NCBI GenBank assembly: GCA_963726265.1
Contig: CAVSBQ010000002.1
Location: 640,001 to 704,000 of the forward strand
Length of the DNA stretch: 64,000 nt
Source: Candidatus Aenigmatarchaeota archaeon
GTDB lineage: Archaea > Aenigmatarchaeota > Aenigmatarchaeia > QMZP01 > QMZT01
Reading direction: 5' to 3'
Shown one piece after another: positions 8,901 through 31,353 of the stretch. Numbering within the stretch: position 1 is the first letter of the stretch; every line of letters begins with the position of its first letter. The notes below the pieces were generated by a model that was not told the DNA's origin, searched no databases, and saw only the letters and a list, made by a program, of their open reading frames with translations. The position numbers were made by a program, and so were the translations under genes.

Positions 8901-9361
8901 AAAAGCAGGCTTGCTGTATCCAACCAGAATAACACCCCCGTCAAAAGAGTCAATACAATTTCGAATAAAATTTTGTTCCTGTAGCCGTAAGGGAATATGT
9001 GCAGAAAAACCTCGGTTTTAGAATATGGATAAAAAGGCATGGACTTGCCGGCAAGGAAATCAAGCGCAAAATGGAGGACCATGCAAAGCGCCGCTATCAT
9101 GGTCGCGTGGGGAAAAAACAGGTAACAGATGCAAACAAGGGCGGACAGCAGCGTCAGGCCGTATATTTCATGAAATCTAGTTCTGGATGCCGAGCCGAAC
9201 CTTCTTTTGATGACTCCGCTTCCCGTCTTCAACAGATAAGGGACATGCGTCAGGTCGATAGCAACCGAAAAAATAAGAATGAATATAACATAACTCCACG
9301 CATTGCCTATCACGAAATCAACAAAAAGGTAATTGAATAAAAAATGAAAAGCCACATTCAT
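8897..9361 (-). CDS. Membrane-bound metal-dependent hydrolase (YdjM-like)
   Basis: HFLF, DLTH, RTRFH and LHFALD motifs within TM helices. Confidence 0.7.
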   Translation of the reverse strand: MNVAFHFLFNYLFVDFVIGNAWSYVIFILIFSVAIDLTHVPYLLKTGSGVIKRRFGSASRTRFHEIYGLTLLSALVCICYLFFPHATMIAALCMVLHFALDFLAGKSMPFYPYSKTEVFLHIFPYGYRNKILFEIVLTLLTGVLFWLDTASLLL

Positions 9362-10740
9362 ATTTTCCTCTCGAAATATTTTCTGAGAAAGACGGAAAAT
9401 CCCATGTTTTTTTCAACAAGCTTCCCGGCGTCCTTTGATTTTAAAAGCATGAAGCCTCTCGAAATGCCTTTCGCTATATGCGACCTTATCCCATCGCGAG
9501 TCAGCTGCCTCTCTGATTTTCTAAGGAAGCCTTTCAGGAGAAGTTCAAGCTTTCTGCATTTCCTTTTAGCCTCGACACAAAGCTTGCCATTTTCAACATA
9601 AACGTTGTATTTGCCGTATTTTTTCCTGAATTCAGCGGCATGCCTTTCGGAACTGGCAGGGGGACCAGATACCTTGGTCATTTCAGACAGAAGCCAAGTC
9701 TTCATTTCAAATATCATGTAGGCTTTCTTTTCATCACCCCATACATCCTGATGAAAAACATCAAAGTCATTTTCCTCCATTAGATGCGCAAGCCTCAAAG
9801 ACGTTTTTCTCATCTGGGACCAGAGTATGTCATCCACAACTTTGGGCCTGTTAAATTTCAGAACGAAAAGTTCCGTGCCTCTTTTTTTAAGGTGATTTTT
9901 GACGTCATTTTTTTTCAGATAACCTTTATCTATCTCGAAAAACCTCAAAGAAGGTTTTCTGGAGAATTTCTTGCACACATCAACGAATTTCACGAAGTTT
10001 TCCTTCGACAGCGACGCTGCAACATTCCTTTTCGGATCAGTCGGGTCTATAACTATCAATGGTTGGTCCCTGAAATTTTCAGTAGGGTATTCAAACTTGC
10101 AATGATTTTTAAGGTCAATGAATACGCCGAATTTCCATTTTTTCGCGGCATTCAGAAGCCTCCTGAAATCTTTGTATTTTATTATCAGAAGCTCGCACAG
10201 ATAACCGGAAAAACCCAGCGTGCGTATATCGGAGCCGTATATATCAATCGCTTTGCAGAACTGCTTCAAAAGCCTGACGTCATTCGCCATTTTAGGCCTC
10301 AGGTTTTCAAGTATATACTTGTTGTGGAAGGGCGTGCGGTCAACTGCTGACATTATTTTGGCTGCCGATGCAACCTTATAGCAAGGCACGATATCCACAG
10401 AAAACTCGCCAATTTTTCCCTTCACATAGGGGTGCTCAGCATACGCTATTTCGTATTTGCCTTTCATTTTTTTCACGATTTGTCTGCCGATTTCGAGGCC
10501 GGTTTTTTCAAGCCTTTCTCTCGTGTATGTGACCGGGAACAGTATGAAAAGGTCCAGCTCCCTTTTATCAGCGAGCCACGTGTCGCGTATAAACGAACCG
10601 GCTATCGTTTTTTCAAGTTTGAGCGGCCTTATGACGCTGTCGGTGGCAGCCAAAACTTTTTGCAGGACCTCGGAAAATTCCCTCATTTCGCTTTCCTTCG
10701 GCACTATTTTTTCCAGCGCCCTTTTCAGAACGGCATCCAT
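9358..10740 (-). CDS. cca: CCA-adding enzyme (archaeal class I)
   Basis: GSFIRDTWL...ELDLF, YAEHPY, SAVDRTPFH, GFSGYLCELL. Confidence 0.96.
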   Translation of the reverse strand: MDAVLKRALEKIVPKESEMREFSEVLQKVLAATDSVIRPLKLEKTIAGSFIRDTWLADKRELDLFILFPVTYTRERLEKTGLEIGRQIVKKMKGKYEIAYAEHPYVKGKIGEFSVDIVPCYKVASAAKIMSAVDRTPFHNKYILENLRPKMANDVRLLKQFCKAIDIYGSDIRTLGFSGYLCELLIIKYKDFRRLLNAAKKWKFGVFIDLKNHCKFEYPTENFRDQPLIVIDPTDPKRNVAASLSKENFVKFVDVCKKFSRKPSLRFFEIDKGYLKKNDVKNHLKKRGTELFVLKFNRPKVVDDILWSQMRKTSLRLAHLMEENDFDVFHQDVWGDEKKAYMIFEMKTWLLSEMTKVSGPPASSERHAAEFRKKYGKYNVYVENGKLCVEAKRKCRKLELLLKGFLRKSERQLTRDGIRSHIAKGISRGFMLLKSKDAGKLVEKNMGFSVFLRKYFERKI

Positions 10741-15518: not shown

Positions 15519-15524
15519 TAGTAT

Positions 15525-15917
15525 TCATGAATTTTCTATCAGTCTAACATTTCCACGCATAGGTATAACTTCCAGTTCACCCATATATATCTGCACATCT
15601 CCAACCACATTAATTGATTCTCCTATTTTTATAGCATTTGCATCAATATTTTTTGTTTCCAGCAGCCTTATGGTGTCTTCCCATAAAACAATTTTTATCT
15701 CTCCCGTGGCATCTTGAAGATTCATGAAAATATTACCATCATTTTCACGGATACTCTTCACGAACCCAGTTATATTCACGACCTTTCCAGCGAACGATTT
15801 GTCAATTTCACCTATGTTCACGTGAAGTGAAGATAGGTTGTATGTGACCAAATACAGCAGTATGAAACATACAAAAATACCCGCTACTGATAGTCTGGCC
15901 AGCTTTTTCTCATTCAT
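15525..15917 (-). CDS. Membrane-anchored OB-fold protein
   Basis: N-terminal TM helix; OB-fold pattern (LQDATGEIKIV, VVGDVQIYMGELE). Confidence 0.75.
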   Translation of the reverse strand: MNEKKLARLSVAGIFVCFILLYLVTYNLSSLHVNIGEIDKSFAGKVVNITGFVKSIRENDGNIFMNLQDATGEIKIVLWEDTIRLLETKNIDANAIKIGESINVVGDVQIYMGELEVIPMRGNVRLIENS

Positions 15918-15918
15918 A

Positions 15919-16461
15919 TTATCGCCCCATTTTCCAAACTGCTATATCGCTGTGAATCGGACCTCCGGGTGTCAGGATGCTTGATTTCAGTTTCACCTCG
16001 TTCACGTTCATTTCACCAAAGTTCACGTTTTCGCGATTCTTTATCAGCATTGACAGTGAATCCAGATTCTTTCCTGATTTAACCCTCGCTATGGTCATGT
16101 GGGATGATGTGCTATTTTCGCCAAACTTCACGTTTTCATTCACTTTATTCATGAGAATCTTCATTTTGGCTTCACCGTCTTTGATGCCAACCCAAAGCGT
16201 CCTTATAAAATGAGATTTACCGAAATAGCCGATACCGTACATGGCTATGTTAAAGGGACATTCATTTTCAATGAATGCAAGCGATTTTTTAATAATCTCC
16301 ACTTCACATTCCTTCACTTCGCCGATGAATTTAAGTGTGAAGTGCATTTGTGCCGGTTCCACCAGTTTTAAATCCGACTCTGTCGATACAAGTTCTCTCT
16401 GTAACCTGACAATGGCATCTTTAAGGCCTTCGTCAACATCTACGCATATGAAACATCTCAT
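15919..16461 (-). CDS. thpR: RNA 2',3'-cyclic phosphodiesterase (2H family)
   Basis: HFTLKF and HMTIAR motifs; SSILTPGGPIH. Confidence 0.92.
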   Translation of the reverse strand: MRCFICVDVDEGLKDAIVRLQRELVSTESDLKLVEPAQMHFTLKFIGEVKECEVEIIKKSLAFIENECPFNIAMYGIGYFGKSHFIRTLWVGIKDGEAKMKILMNKVNENVKFGENSTSSHMTIARVKSGKNLDSLSMLIKNRENVNFGEMNVNEVKLKSSILTPGGPIHSDIAVWKMGR

Positions 16462-16607
16462 ATGAAATATAAACAATTTCTATATAAATTGATTTCACAC
16501 CACTCATTTGAATCATATTCTTTCACATAACTTCACGAAAAGCATTTAAATATAATTATGAATTATATGAAAATATGAACAAGAATATGAACTTTGGTGA
16601 AGGATAC

Positions 16608-17672
16608 ATGAAGTTGTTTAACTGGAAGGACAATCCCTTCAACTTCAAGATAATGCCGAACCTTTTCGTCGGTTACCCCAGAGAGACAGAAAAACTGGCA
16701 AACAGCATACACAGCAACCACAAAATCTCCATCCTCATAGGCCCCACCGGCTCGGGAAAAACAACCTTTCTCAGATTCCTTGCAAAAACATTTGAAAAAA
16801 ACAGGAAAATTTTTTACCTATCCAAGCCACCGAACAACCCGGATGACTGGGTAAAAATATTCACGAACTTCATAGGCCCCGGAACGATTGGAAGATTGTT
16901 TTCACGCACGAAAAACGTGAACATATACAATCTGAGCGAATGGACAAACAGCAGGATGAAAAACAAAAAAATGATATTATTTGTCGATGAAAGCCATGAA
17001 GCAAGCACGGAAACGTTGGAATGGCTGAGAACTCTCGCAGACCAGATAGATAATCTTTCGGTGGTAATTGCGGGCCTGCCTGTTCTGGAGACAATGCTCG
17101 TGGACAAGCTTGAAACCTTCATGAGAAGATCGAACCTGAAAATCGAGCTCACAAGCCTGACAAAATCGGAGACAAGAGAACTTATCAAAAAGAGGATAGA
17201 ATGGGCAGGCGGCGAGGACATAAAACCCTTCACTTCGGAAACCGTGGAGCGCATATATGAAAAAACAGGCGGCTTCCCCAGGGAAGTCATAAGAATGTGC
17301 AACGACCTTGTGCAAAAGGCCATAGAAGAAAACATAACATCGATAGACATGGATTTCCTCGGCGATTCTGATTTTCTCATGCATGCTGCGCACAGGCACC
17401 ACCACAGGATCCCGCTCAGTTCGCTGGACTCCATGCCGTCGAAACAAAAAAATATTATTGAGATATTGTGGAAATACGGAGAACTTACTCCGGCCGAGAT
17501 AGTCGATAAAATGGACATGGATGATTACAAAAACAAGGATAATGCCATACGCTCCATAAATAACATCGTTAAAAGACTCGTTAAAGACGGCACCATCATA
17601 AGAAAGCGCAGAGGGAAAAGCTATCAGTATCTGCTTTCTGACAAAATGAGAACTTTAATGGTGCACGCATAA
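16608..17672 (+). CDS. AAA+ ATPase with C-terminal winged helix (ExeA/Cdc6-like architecture)
   Basis: GPTGSGKT, LFVDE, GGFPRE lid motif, C-terminal wHTH; GGTGA RBS favours start 16608 (alternative 16575). Confidence 0.85.
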   Translation: MKLFNWKDNPFNFKIMPNLFVGYPRETEKLANSIHSNHKISILIGPTGSGKTTFLRFLAKTFEKNRKIFYLSKPPNNPDDWVKIFTNFIGPGTIGRLFSRTKNVNIYNLSEWTNSRMKNKKMILFVDESHEASTETLEWLRTLADQIDNLSVVIAGLPVLETMLVDKLETFMRRSNLKIELTSLTKSETRELIKKRIEWAGGEDIKPFTSETVERIYEKTGGFPREVIRMCNDLVQKAIEENITSIDMDFLGDSDFLMHAAHRHHHRIPLSSLDSMPSKQKNIIEILWKYGELTPAEIVDKMDMDDYKNKDNAIRSINNIVKRLVKDGTIIRKRRGKSYQYLLSDKMRTLMVHA

Positions 17673-17724: not shown

Positions 17725-17988
17725 ATGGCGGAAGAAAGAGTGCGAAGCAGGGACCTTGTAGGCAAGATTCTGATTTCAGAGGAAAGCGGGAAGAAATTCG
17801 GCGTTGTTGGCGACCTTGATTACATAGTTGAATCCGGCGAGCTGATAAACCTGGTTCTCGTTCAGCCGACGAAACACGCAAGCGAACTTAACCTGCAGGA
17901 AGATGACAAAGGCAGGACGCTTGTCCCGTTCTCTGCAGTCAAGTCGGTCGGGGATTTCGTCATCGTATCCGAAAAGGATATAATCTAA
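17725..17988 (+). CDS. PRC-barrel protein (CdpB-like)
   Basis: 87 aa; GKKFGVVGDL and VPFSAVKSVGDFVIV. Confidence 0.88.
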   Translation: MAEERVRSRDLVGKILISEESGKKFGVVGDLDYIVESGELINLVLVQPTKHASELNLQEDDKGRTLVPFSAVKSVGDFVIVSEKDII

Positions 17989-18059: not shown

Positions 18060-18362
18060 ATGGCCGGCAAAGACTACTATAAGAAAACCATAAAAAACGT
18101 TATGCAGATATTCAGTCTGCTCAAAGAAGCCAATGCAAGAAACGAGCTTCTTACCGTATCAAAAATTTCAAAGCTTACGGGTCTGCACAAATGGACCGTA
18201 TCCCGGACTTTGGATTTGTATATGTCGCCTTATGTCGAAATAACAATTCCAGAAGGCTTCGATGACGTAGGACTCAGGATTAAATTCGTGCGCCTGAAAA
18301 ACAAAAACATGACAAGGGAGCAAGTGCTGAGGTTTCTGAATATCAGAAGTCTCACTTTTTAG
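18060..18362 (+). CDS. Small HTH protein
   Basis: [20 protein letters not shown] helix-turn-helix. Confidence 0.7.
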
Positions 18363-19326
18363 AGCCTTCTTCTACATCCCTCACGCCCTCGCCTAGGACC
18401 CTGAAAACTATTTCGCCCTCAGGCAGGTTTGGCGAGTCTATGAGCTTCGCTATCCTTTTGTCTTCCTTGGATTTCCTCAGATAAACTCTGTAGGTAGCTT
18501 GGTGGCCGACTATATGACCTCCTATGGGAGTGGTCGGGTCGCCGAATAGGACGTCGGGCCTTGACATGACCTGATTGGTCACGTAGATGGCAAGATTGTA
18601 GACGTCAGCAAGCCTCTGCAGCTTGTGCATGTGCCTGTTAAGCTTCTGCTGGCGGTCAGCAAGCGTTCCACGACCGGTGTAATCGGACCTGAAGGCCGAT
18701 GTGAGCGAATCGACCACTATAAGCTTGACGTTTTCCTTCTTGATGAGCTCTTCGGCCTTCTCGATGAGAATCACCTGATGGTCAGAGTTGTAAGCCCTCC
18801 CCACGAATATGTTTTCCATCACTTTATCCGGGTCAAGATCAAGACCTTCTGCCATCTGCTTTATCCTTTCAGGCCTGAATGTCTGCTCGGTATCTATGAA
18901 TATGACCTTTCCGTCCAGCCCGCCCCTTTCCCGTGGAAGCTGCACGGTGACCGAAAGCTGGTGGGCAAGCTGGGACTTGCCCGAGCCGTATGCGCCATGC
19001 ATTTCTGTTATTGCCTGAGTCTCGACGCCACCGCCAAGCAGTTTGTCCAGCTCTTTTGAGCACGTGGTTATTTTTCCCAGGCTTTCTCTTTTGATCATGA
19101 CGTCCTTCGCTGTTTCGAAACCCATCTTGAGCTTCTGTCTAGCTCCGGCTATTATTTTGTTTGCAGTATCAACGCCTATGCCCGTTGCCGCGACAAGCTC
19201 GCCGGCCGAAGCGGCAGCTATACCCATTAGATTATCATAACCGGCTTCTATGAATTTTTCAAGGGTTTTTTCACCGACTCCGGGAAGACTCTCTATATCC
19301 TTATTGACGTCCGTTTCTTTTGCCAT
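18352..19326 (-). CDS. radA: Recombinase RadA
   Basis: N-terminal Hh[24 protein letters not shown]. Confidence 0.98.
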
Positions 19327-19355
19327 ACCAACACCTCACACCAGGGGTTTATATT

Positions 19356-20381
19356 TCATTTGGGTATTTTAATTTTCAATGCGTCTATTTTTGCGAGCAG
19401 GCTCTCGGATTCCTCCCTCGGTTTTATCTCTTCAGCGTCGTTTGCAACAATTTCCAGTTTTTCCGAGAACTGGTTTTTCTTCACTCTGCCTTTTATCATG
19501 AATTCCCTGCCAAGTTGTATATTTTCATAAATTTCCGTAAGCTTTCCGGTCTTGGCATTTTTCAGGTCCTTTGCGGCATCGCCGACAATCTTTTCGGCCA
19601 GCTCCCTGAAGAAAACGACGCGTATATTGCCGGTTCCGTCATCAAGAACACCGGAAACAACAAGATTGCGCTTCGGCTCGACCTGGCCGTGCTCCTTGCA
19701 TTTCCATACATTCCCATCATTCTCCAGCCGCGCCTCGCATTTGGGACACACGTCGTAGAAGGGAGTCCTTTCAAACACCTGAACAAGCGAGGCCCTGACC
19801 TCGCAGTATTCCTCCTCTTTCAGTTCGGAGATGTTTTTTGTCTTGAGTGAATCGAAACTGTCCTCCATCTCGCTTATTGCCGGCATTTCCTCATCCGATT
19901 TAGCCATCCTGCCGAACCTGCCAAGGTGTATTTCGATCTCGCCTCTCCCGTTCTCCTTGATATAGCCGTTCCTTATGCTTATCACGTCGCCGCTGTTTAC
20001 ATCCAGCTTGCTGATCCAGTCTATTTCGCTGTCCCAGAGCGGAAGCCTTAGCATCCCCGTTTCGTCGCCAAGCATGACATTAACAACACCTCTCGTTTTA
20101 CCGTCCCTTTCGAAATCCCTCCGGTTCGATATCCTGACAACCCTTCCCATGACATCAACCGATCGCATGCCTACGGTGACGTTTTTTATTTTCAGCCGGC
20201 GGTTGGGCACGTCTTTCACGAGGTTCACTCCGAGTTCCTTGCCGACAATGTAGGCAGCCCCTTCGGGCGAAACAAGGCCAGAGAGTTCCAGCAGCTTATC
20301 CTCTATTTTTTCATTTACTTCATGCTCGGCCAGGCCGGATGCCCTTGATATTTCCTTTACCATATCCTTGAATGAGAACAT
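19356..20381 (-). CDS. rpa: Replication protein A subunit (OB folds plus Zn finger)
   Basis: GDETG and DDGTG OB-fold motifs; CPKC...CKEH. Confidence 0.88.
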   Translation of the reverse strand: MFSFKDMVKEISRASGLAEHEVNEKIEDKLLELSGLVSPEGAAYIVGKELGVNLVKDVPNRRLKIKNVTVGMRSVDVMGRVVRISNRRDFERDGKTRGVVNVMLGDETGMLRLPLWDSEIDWISKLDVNSGDVISIRNGYIKENGRGEIEIHLGRFGRMAKSDEEMPAISEMEDSFDSLKTKNISELKEEEYCEVRASLVQVFERTPFYDVCPKCEARLENDGNVWKCKEHGQVEPKRNLVVSGVLDDGTGNIRVVFFRELAEKIVGDAAKDLKNAKTGKLTEIYENIQLGREFMIKGRVKKNQFSEKLEIVANDAEEIKPREESESLLAKIDALKIKIPK

Positions 20382-30588: not shown

Positions 30589-31353
30589 ATGACCAGGATA
30601 ATTGCGATTTCTTCGGGCAAGGGGGGCGTCGGCAAAACAACCCTCGTTTCTAACCTCGCCGCGGCGCTCGCCCAATACGGCAAGTCGGTGGTCGCAGTCG
30701 ACGCGAACCTTACGACATCGAATCTCGCGCTCCATCTCGGCATGCATCTTTACCCCAAAACGATACATGACGTTTTCGAGGGCAGGGCGAAAATAAAGGA
30801 TGTCATGTATGCCCACAAGTCCGGCTTCAAGGTAATTCCAGCGGACATTTCGCTGAGGCGGAACAGGAACCTGAAATCGCACGATTACATAGACGTCCTT
30901 TACAGATTGTTGGAAGGCCATGATTTCATCCTTATAGATTCGCCGGCCGGCCTTGGCAGGGATTCGCTCGCCGCGCTAGAGGCCGCCGACGAGCTGATAA
31001 CGATAACAAACCCCGAGCTGCCCGCAGTCACGGATGCGCTGAAGCTCACGCTGCTTGCGAAAAAATACTCCACGCACAACCTTGGCGTGGTCATCAACCG
31101 GATAAAGAGGGAAACGCATGAGATGCCAAGCGATCACATAGCGAGTATGCTTGGCCTTCCGGTCATAGGCAAGATACCAGAGGACAGGGAAGTGAGGAAA
31201 GCGATAGCGCTCAAGGAGCCTGTTGTAATTTACAACCCGAGATCGCCTGCCGCGCAGCACATAAGAGCGATAGCAGCAGGCCTCATAGGAGAAACATTCG
31301 AGCCGAAAATGCCGTGGAGCTACCGCCTTTCCAACTGGCTGGCTTCAAGATAG
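30589..31353 (+). CDS. minD: MinD/ParA family ATPase
   Basis: SGKGGVGKT, DSPAG, IPED. Confidence 0.9.
   Translation: MTRIIAISSGKGGVGKTTLVSNLAAALAQYGKSVVAVDANLTTSNLALHLGMHLYPKTIHDVFEGRAKIKDVMYAHKSGFKVIPADISLRRNRNLKSHDYIDVLYRLLEGHDFILIDSPAGLGRDSLAALEAADELITITNPELPAVTDALKLTLLAKKYSTHNLGVVINRIKRETHEMPSDHIASMLGLPVIGKIPEDREVRKAIALKEPVVIYNPRSPAAQHIRAIAAGLIGETFEPKMPWSYRLSNWLASR

Follow-up and report, generated by a model that had tools for sequence, protein, structure and literature searches.

The 64,000-nucleotide stretch analyzed here (hereafter the window; G000:C2:640001-704000, from an Aenigmatarchaeota genome, G000, of 1.13 Mb in four contigs and 88% completeness) carries an array of the word RTGAA, read as TTCAY on the opposite strand, beside the gene of a single-copy AAA+ ATPase. 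We found that the copies are spaced by the turn of the DNA helix, that the word is under selection where it runs through neighboring genes, and that the array is phylum-wide and follows the ATPase. Our literature search returned no title or abstract describing the array or the ATPase, most subscription papers lying outside its coverage; within the literature searched, the array is undescribed. The reading that we favor, with confidence just short of even, is that the lattice is both an operator and a reservoir for the ATPase, which would also act at the replication origin in the manner of Orc1-2 from outside the Orc1/Cdc6 family; binding of the word by the ATPase is predicted.

The preliminary description of this stretch had listed 18 TTCAC, 8 TTCAT, six downstream RTGAA and an AT-rich core at 16538-16557, and every position matched. 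The density that it noted was borne out genome-wide: the top 1-kb window for TTCAY holds 25 copies (runner-up 13; contig mean 2.7 per kb), and that for TTCAC holds 18 (runner-up 7; mean 1.0 per kb). The same was true of helical spacing, since 34 of 52 same-strand pairs no more than 45 bp apart in the window fell in helical bins (p=1e-4). As for the claimed inversion of the motif across the core, six RTGAA do lie past it, but the upstream side is not exclusive to one orientation, with 12 plus-strand RTGAA within 15524-16537. The AT-richness of the region is moderate only (GC 0.38 in 16001-17000) and falls outside the ten lowest-GC windows of either 200 bp or 1 kb.

When pair distances were pooled from 20 distant loci, peaks appeared at 11 (173 pairs), 22, 30-33, 41-43, 52-54, 63, 74, 84 and 95 bp, with a best period of 10.5 bp. 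Opposite-strand copies at these loci were offset by +5 (the TTCAYRTGAA palindrome, 84 cases), +16, +24-27, +35-37, -6, -17 and -28, and both orientations thus share one lattice. The distant arrays are compact, chiefly non-coding and mixed in orientation, reach up to 46 copies per 500 bp and contain full TTCACGTGAA palindromes; in family f6, upstream copies often share the orientation of the downstream ones. Conservation thus does not extend to the flip. The array of G000, whose upstream field lies mostly within the OB-fold and thpR genes, is likely a strand-biased variant of the lattice that runs into genes because the intergenic gap is short.

The array recurs beside ATPase orthologues. Of 78 ATPase loci fetched, 67 had enough flank to be tested against their own flanks (Poisson p<0.001), and 60 of these were enriched, as were 19 of 20 loci chosen from other orders; the mean excess of the word over the 78 loci spans about -1200 to +800. 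For the locus scan we used a Walker-B-to-lid alignment because the full alignment mostly recovered P-loop matches (1 true relative in 30). Related loci and a protein atlas place the ATPase family in Aenigmatarchaeota, and among 1.84 billion representatives 103 score E<=1e-30 with it. The gene is present in 40 of 41 close relatives and in 176 of 251 genomes of the phylum, nearly always as a single copy. It was found in none of 50 genomes of family f13 and none of 14 of family f16, and a lax search in five genomes of these two families returned P-loop matches only. Nanopusillus-type homologues had no array in any of the four loci read (ten were fetched).

Full palindromes lie upstream of the ATPase in 6 of 6 cases in G090, 5 of 5 in G101, 4 of 4 in G138, 4 of 5 in G094 and 5 of 6 in G056; the three of G131 are away from the ATPase and G149 has none. 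Palindromes also occur in 15 of 50 f13 genomes and 1 of 14 f16 genomes, the four copies of G054 being on four contigs. A scan for paired TTCACGTGAA gave, among the 80 matches listed, one archaeal record and otherwise nearly all bacterial ones, and the latter we have taken for parS pairs.

Sense-strand RTGAA number 6-18 per gene in 24 ATPase-linked thpR genes versus 1-4 in five unlinked ones. Since thpR is copy-rich only when it is linked to the ATPase gene, the array follows the ATPase and not thpR, and thpR was rejected as its driver.

The word itself is under selection, as indicated by codon bias, amino-acid skew and protection between strains, and the proposal of a protein-binding array overprinted on coding DNA was upheld on these three counts. 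Of 1,077 called open reading frames (ORFs), thpR comes first in sense RTGAA and the OB-fold gene second. Genome codon usage would predict 5.8 +/- 1.5 copies in thpR, which has 14 (p=0.0003), and 3.2 in the OB-fold gene, which has 8 (p=0.0003). With each gene's own synonymous codons permuted, the expectations were 10.4 +/- 1.6 (p=0.027) and 5.4 (p=0.052), nulls that are high because codon choice in both genes is itself skewed. No such enrichment extends into the ATPase N-terminus, where the first 120 codons hold 5 RTGAA versus 3.6 under the codon-usage null (p=0.11). In linked thpR genes, Val before an AAN codon is written GTG in 120 of 164 cases versus 809 of 2,238 genome-wide, and Val before other codons is ordinary (45 of 173 versus 4,792 of 17,894). 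The skew reaches the proteins, as had been noted from the sequence: Asn makes up 6.9% in 21 of the 24 linked thpR products and 2.6% in the five unlinked ones. Lastly, in a contig of a related strain (run X2, 15930-16620), none of 40 differences fell in 69 motif bases where 7.2 were expected, or 6.6 with stratification by codon position (P=2e-4 and 4e-4). This comparison rests on one contig, with 40 of its 56 differences covered, reaching 16326; five differences fell in the 17 bases that make up the opposite-orientation copies. The locus thus provides a natural case of dual coding, in which a DNA-binding lattice alters codons and amino acids of adjacent genes.

The AT-rich core, which the preliminary description had proposed as an unwinding element, is likely the promoter of the ATPase gene, judging from its composition and position. 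In 22 of 30 loci, a hexamer of TTTAAA/TATAAA type has its start 28-32 bp 5' of the position that corresponds to window ATG 16575, a spacing that suits an archaeal TATA box with a leaderless start. In the window, we take the purine-rich run and TTTAAATA to be the transcription factor B recognition element (BRE) and the TATA box, labels that follow the usual layout of archaeal promoters. Word copies are found directly 5' of the purine run and over the inferred start. With a TATA-like hexamer in the 20-bp core and the flip not kept among relatives, the unwinding element was not supported. The ATPase ORF starts at 16575 and not at 16608 as first given.

The predicted model of the ATPase (pLDDT 82.6), together with fold searches, shows an AAA+ domain with a helical insert followed by a winged helix, as in the Orc1/Cdc6 architecture. 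Foldseek matched the model to Cdc6 of P. aerophilum with an E-value of 6.9e-12, and VIA placed Drosophila Cdc6 first (Z 18.7, root-mean-square deviation 3.1, 242 aligned), with MuB at 16.7 and TnsC at 16.6. By sequence, membership in the Orc1/Cdc6 family was rejected, there being no TIGR02928 match at E<=0.001. Profile comparison with the local Cdc6 gave a probability of 44.7% over 141 columns, and the best sequence model was TIGR03015 (E 6.8e-23, below its cut-off), relatives being labelled 'ExeA' in sources. No PDB sequence relatives were found beyond the P-loop, and for the isolated winged helix no Orc1/Cdc6 winged helix appeared in the top 50, a result that excludes nothing; sequence matches to AspA were insignificant (E 0.35-0.57). 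Walker A (GPTGSGKTT), D138-E139, R185 and R236 are invariant, and the roles presumed for these residues include Walker B, arginine finger and sensor II. The helix N323-R334 is also invariant, with the pattern N323-A324-x-R326-x-x-N329-N330, and this pattern is changed in the array-less Nanopusillus homologue. The protein resembles ExeA-like, TnsC and MuB ATPases in its best sequence model and in its fold match to the MuB and TnsC filaments. Unlike them, it is single-copy, conserved and chromosomal, has a C-terminal winged helix, and its recurring neighbors include no transposase or secretion gene. In a sister group of proteins (P0051-P0075; 430-540 aa), the same ATPase core is C-terminal and follows a long N-terminal part, with a zinc ribbon in that of P0056, and there is no winged helix.

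Turning to the origin, the sole Cdc6 of G000 above the TIGR02928 cut-off is encoded at C2:627804-628895. Using the euryarchaeal consensus of the origin recognition box (ORB) given in excerpts of PMC1868953, we matched four ORB-like boxes at and upstream of the start of cdc6 (628953-629108), along with three behind polB (623689-, 623776- and 623822+). The array holds no ORB box, in agreement with the preliminary description, and no G-string; only 4 ORB-pattern matches were found within +/-4 kb of the 78 ATPase loci. Since the ORB boxes and cdc6 are 28-33 kb distant on the same contig, the array is probably not the main origin. The two gaps that carry the boxes (C2:623619-623867 and 628959-629150, 16 and 11 kb before the window) flank the cdc6 cluster, hold boxes in both orientations and possibly form a two-part origin. 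A conserved ATAACA-N-TGTTAT palindrome, with ORBs on either side, marks almost every cdc6-upstream gap shown (the C2:629050 area in G000 and most relatives).

A link to replication did survive in another form, as the same word is enriched in ORB-bearing gaps. The gap behind polB, which lies between convergent polB and a TctA-family gene and recurs in relatives, has the densest 250-bp RTGAA cluster of the genome and its second-densest 1-kb TTCAY window. In regions from 46 genomes, RTGAA with ORBs masked reached 32.9 per kb in the ORB-bearing gaps behind polB (24 gaps, 22 genomes) and 9.3 per kb in the 41 ORB gaps upstream of cdc6. The 257 gaps free of ORBs had 6.1 per kb and the 9 ATPase gaps 44.8, and across all four classes a reversed control word stayed at 3.6-5.1 per kb. 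In the order of G000, only the polB gap is RTGAA-rich and the cdc6-upstream ORB gap is nearly devoid of extra copies; some distant families have extra copies at the cdc6-upstream gap (8-10 each in G043, G094, G135 and G138). TTCAY prefers fixed offsets beyond the ORB G-string, namely +20 to +22 and +28.

Skew was less telling. At four-fold sites the skew is maximal at 614 kb, with a 68% interval of 593-614 kb and a 95% interval of 288-711 kb, which places the extremum near cdc6 and does not separate 624 from 656 kb; raw GC skew peaks at 570 kb and is confounded by gene strand. The four-fold-site G-C skew peaks there and does not dip, which is the opposite of the usual bacterial sign if this is the origin. 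A small tyrosine recombinase gene, recognized by motifs, lies at C2:110 kb. Measured from this gene, the polB gap is 513 kb away and the array 546 kb, which does not tell the two sites apart.

Several candidate binders of the word were considered. The helix-turn-helix (HTH) protein at 18060, which the preliminary description had put forward with the ATPase, occurs in ATPase-less families (35 of 50 f13 and 7 of 14 f16 genomes) and was not found in the array-bearing families f8 (0 of 8), f15 (0 of 7) and f20 (0 of 5), making it a poor candidate. An XRE-type HTH protein beside cdc6 was rejected after it was found in 0 of 10 f11 and 0 of 7 f14 genomes, and ParB was rejected because ParB_N had no match in five genomes, G000 included, where 10 of 14 controls were positive. 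The ATPase and main-clade Cdc6 remain.

These two were lost jointly in families f13 and f16. At E<=1e-80, main-clade Cdc6 was found in 6 of 50 f13 genomes (weakly) and 0 of 14 f16 genomes, and weaker-scoring Cdc6 was kept in all five genomes of these families that were tested. ORB matches were absent from all 10 short loci (cdc6 or polB) of the two families, which at the loci read are without main-clade Cdc6, the ATPase and ORB matches alike. Because the loss is shared, distribution cannot tell the ATPase from Cdc6 as the binder. In 57 genomes with both genes on one contig, the ATPase gene is 1.6-58 kb from cdc6 (median 16 kb; 1.6-5.4 kb in nine). Complex prediction for the ATPase with the local Cdc6 scored 0.00, gave no verdict and counts neither way.

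In the mechanism that we propose, the winged helix of the ATPase would recognize RTGAA at one unit for each helical turn, and the palindrome would serve as a two-fold site. Cooperative assembly, with one protomer per turn on a single face of the DNA, would be driven by ATP binding. Copies around the TATA box would block transcription of the ATPase gene, and the long field may titrate or store the protein, comparable to datA or plasmid iteron arrays. Copies beside the ORB G-string could help or hinder Cdc6, the sign being possible either way.

Titration loci such as E. coli datA and the P1 incA iterons place many copies of a binding word off the origin and only a few next to it, with others over the promoter of the binder's own gene. 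By analogy, the lattice would resemble them in having many copies away from the likely origin, few beside it and some over the promoter of the candidate binder. It differs from them in its archaeal host, its strict 10.5-bp lattice and a candidate binder that is not established as an initiator.

The closest comparison is with Orc1-2 of Sulfolobales. As described in excerpts of PMC9738581, Orc1-2 binds the short, asymmetric ANTTTC on its own promoter, more strongly with ATP, and excerpts of PMC5333045 have it binding origins without initiating there and propose it as a negative regulator of initiation. The ATPase is likewise an AAA+ protein with a winged helix, and the short word that it is predicted to bind lies both at its own promoter and at origin gaps. 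Unlike Orc1-2, a member of the Orc1/Cdc6 family, it fails TIGR02928, and its site is a phased lattice of 0.5-1 kb. Nor did tests at mcm, ftsZ and radA reveal the conserved regulon of repair or cell-cycle promoters of an Orc1-2-type regulator. A phased pair was found upstream of mcm in 1 of 24 genes and of the best-scoring ftsZ in 0 of 26, and a conserved regulon at these genes was rejected; upstream of radA there was one in 8 of 45. G056 has a palindrome at its mcm promoter. In G000, 19 of 1,077 upstream regions have any phased pair, and the strongest promoter signal outside the array consists of two phased GTGAA pairs in the divergent gap between the TctA-family and XRE-type HTH genes (C2:625100-625290).

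A number of observations weigh against a lattice bound by the ATPase and acting at the origin. The array was not enriched in 7 of 67 and 1 of 20 loci, and these loci are related, so that the enrichment counts are not independent; G024, G031 and G029 retain just 2-3 promoter copies. In five genomes of the order of G000 the ATPase gene is at least 64-113 kb from cdc6, as limited by contig ends, and the set of 57 genomes used for the distance between the two genes is biased toward same-contig cases. Main-clade Cdc6 is missing from the same families as the ATPase. G046 (95% complete, 80 contigs) and G197 (85%), both fragmented, have RTGAA clusters near ORBs and no ATPase that we could find, and Cdc6 therefore remains a candidate binder. 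Five of 20 distant cdc6-polB regions lack a cluster of at least 7 copies in 250 bp, and clusters of 7-11 occur in four of five 20-kb Cdc6 regions of ATPase-less families (11 behind Cdc6 in G075), which makes this threshold a weak one. Finally, the isolated winged helix resembles MarR, ArsR, PadR and BlaI regulators at near-tied Z scores of 9.3-11.2.

A broader form of the proposal, which we regard as possible yet on balance improbable, is that most Aenigmatarchaeota possess an undescribed origin-control system, in which an initiator-clade ATPase outside Orc1/Cdc6 forms an ATP-dependent filament on the 10.5-bp lattice at its own gene and also nucleates beside ORBs. The ATPase and Cdc6 would then together license, time or tether replication, and the ATPase may bridge its own locus and the two-gap origin at polB-cdc6.

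It is unlikely that the lattice plays no part in origin function and is only a very long autoregulatory operator, serving the ATPase gene along with the divergent thpR promoter. The placement of the lattice agrees with this alternative, being centered on the TATA-like box with copies 5' of the box and over the start, and so do the weakest lineages, which keep just their promoter copies, and the repressor-like winged helix. The densest 250-bp cluster, however, sits in an ORB gap between convergent genes, a 1-kb field that runs into two genes exceeds the needs of an operator, and the joint loss of the ATPase with main-clade Cdc6 also argues for more than autoregulation.

That the array is a second, non-canonical origin, with the ATPase as its dedicated initiator in the way that WhiP serves Sulfolobus oriC3, appears distinctly unlikely. 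Archaeal origins adjoin the initiator gene and oriC3 is without an ORB (PMC4010727, in excerpt). Like the established replicator-initiator pairs, whether oriC with ORB or mini-ORB repeats and orc1/cdc6 or oriC3 with WhiP, the array sets repeats beside a winged-helix gene whose product has an initiator-clade fold, and its palindrome resembles the ORB core. The skew extremum is compatible with 656 kb within its 95% interval, and the tyrosine recombinase gene is roughly opposite. Unlike an ORB-type oriC, the array lacks an ORB, a G-string, a conserved inverted pair around an unwinding element and an adjacent orc1/cdc6, and its sites run through coding DNA with canonical ORB gaps nearby. Only about 110 bp are non-coding, and these hold two TATA-like boxes; the orientation flip is not conserved; the ORB-bearing gaps are 28 and 33 kb off; and the 68% interval of the skew peak ends at 614 kb. 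A second origin would also be redundant in the nine genomes where cdc6 is nearest.

We give little chance to an origin-proximal centromere on which the ATPase or a partner would spread to organize or segregate new origins, as in parS-ParB, SegB or AspA-like systems. The sites are chiefly intragenic and gather no more than about 35 kb from the origin region, and SegB sites likewise cluster near segAB and are mostly intragenic according to excerpts of PMC12284271. In common with parS-ParB, Sulfolobus SegAB and pNOB8 AspA, the array is thus origin-proximal, largely intragenic and densest by the gene of the likely binder. The palindrome TTCACGTGAA is moreover the 10-bp core of bacterial parS (PMC7022226, in excerpt), of which G000 has one copy. 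Yet ParB_N was found in none of five genomes, and the logo of the distant loci lacks the 16-bp parS flanks, which are not conserved. A ParA/MinD-family ATPase gene does lie 14 kb from the array (window 30592-31032), a point in favor, but it is the nearest one and stands outside the locus, unlike the ParA-type ATPases of SegAB and AspA, and ATPase-less G075 has ParA/MinD genes too. Half-sites placed one per turn also differ from the isolated 13-16 bp palindromes of centromere systems, and the preferred TTCAY offsets beside the ORB G-string point to an initiation complex.

Slimmer still is the chance that main-clade Cdc6 itself reads the word, as an ORB half-site that has decayed, in which case the array would act as a sink for Cdc6 or as an operator through which Cdc6 controls the ATPase gene. 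TTCA-CGT-GAA does align with TCCA-GTG-GAA, the core of the euryarchaeal ORB consensus (PMC1868953, in excerpt), TCCACRTGAAA is a frequent reading of local ORBs, Cdc6 and the array are distributed alike, and the clusters of G046 and G197 occur with Cdc6 where the ATPase was not found. Against this stand the scarcity of ORB-pattern matches around the ATPase loci, half-sites without the TYCA half in the order of G000, and the near absence there of extra RTGAA from the cdc6-upstream ORB gap. A by-product of composition or protein sequence (Met/Val-Asn/Lys codons) is effectively refuted by the controls, for although RTGAA is on the coding strand on either side of the flip, own-codon permutation yields most of the thpR count (10.4 of 14) and the ATPase N-terminus is not above its null, unlinked thpR genes are without the pattern, distant relatives reach their high densities in mostly non-coding DNA, the 10.5-bp phasing extends to 100 bp and the motif bases are protected in the related strain.

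How archaea time initiation and handle new origins is largely open beyond Sulfolobales, haloarchaea and Thermococcales (PMC5333045, in excerpt). Across most of a DPANN phylum, the locus offers a candidate factor together with its likely site, and the likely origin provides a second target. The main text on PolB of Aenigmarchaeota (PMC7544198) contains neither 'origin of replication' nor 'orc1', and no passage on ORB or the array was found in bioRxiv 10.64898/2026.05.13.725050.

The gene order around the array (Table 1) is a CCA-adding enzyme gene, primase genes and an M42 peptidase gene on the plus strand, the OB-fold gene and thpR on the minus strand, a gap of about 110 bp and the ATPase gene on the plus strand. 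The ATPase gene is followed on its 3' side by genes for a YlmC-like small protein and a small HTH protein and then by radA and RPA on the minus strand.

Table 1. Features of the array and adjoining genes (window coordinates).
Feature	Position	Strand	Remarks
Upstream lattice field	15524..16536	-	26 RTGAA (18 TTCAC and 8 TTCAT on +) in phased groups, with 12 in the opposite orientation
OB-fold gene	15525..15917	-	Small protein with hydrophobic N-terminus; overprinted by the array
Full TTCACGTGAA palindrome	15817..15826		Only copy in G000; common form in distant relatives
thpR	15919..16461	-	RNA 2',3'-cyclic phosphodiesterase (TIGR02258); coding sequence doubles as array; product Asn-rich, with many VN/VK/MN/MK
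TATA-like box	16481..16488	-	20-27 bp before the thpR start; inferred divergent promoter
Purine-rich run and TTTAAATA	16536..16552	+	Likely BRE and TATA box of the ATPase gene; corresponds to the earlier AT-rich core
Six RTGAA	16558..16612	+	8-12 bp apart; span the inferred transcription start and first ATPase codons
AAA+ ATPase gene	16575..17672	+	C-terminal winged helix; single-copy; initiator-clade fold, ExeA-like sequence; candidate binder
YlmC/YmxH-like gene	17725..17988	+	Small protein (PRC-barrel type); often the downstream neighbor
Small HTH gene	18060..18362	+	Neighbor in the family of G000; distribution does not track the array

Further copies of the word were observed elsewhere. A 13-copy, two-orientation cluster at G000:C2:639565-639815 sits at the 5' end of a gene that is conserved and precedes a tRNA and the thermosome gene, and no cluster was found there in the five relatives mapped. 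Orthologues of the CCA-adding enzyme gene (window 9358-10740) have an intragenic phased GTGAA pair or triple in several relatives, in the FVK..CE.FVK region; 10 of 24 orthologues have some phased pair, the window has none at that place, and the pattern may be partly protein-driven. Phased copies also form a satellite run upstream of radA, at the 3' end of RPA (window 19270-19530 and orthologues), in a few f1 loci. Lastly, G000:C2 encodes four FtsZ-family genes (42771, 133572, 935702 and 957609) in 1.1 Mb, and most relatives have two.

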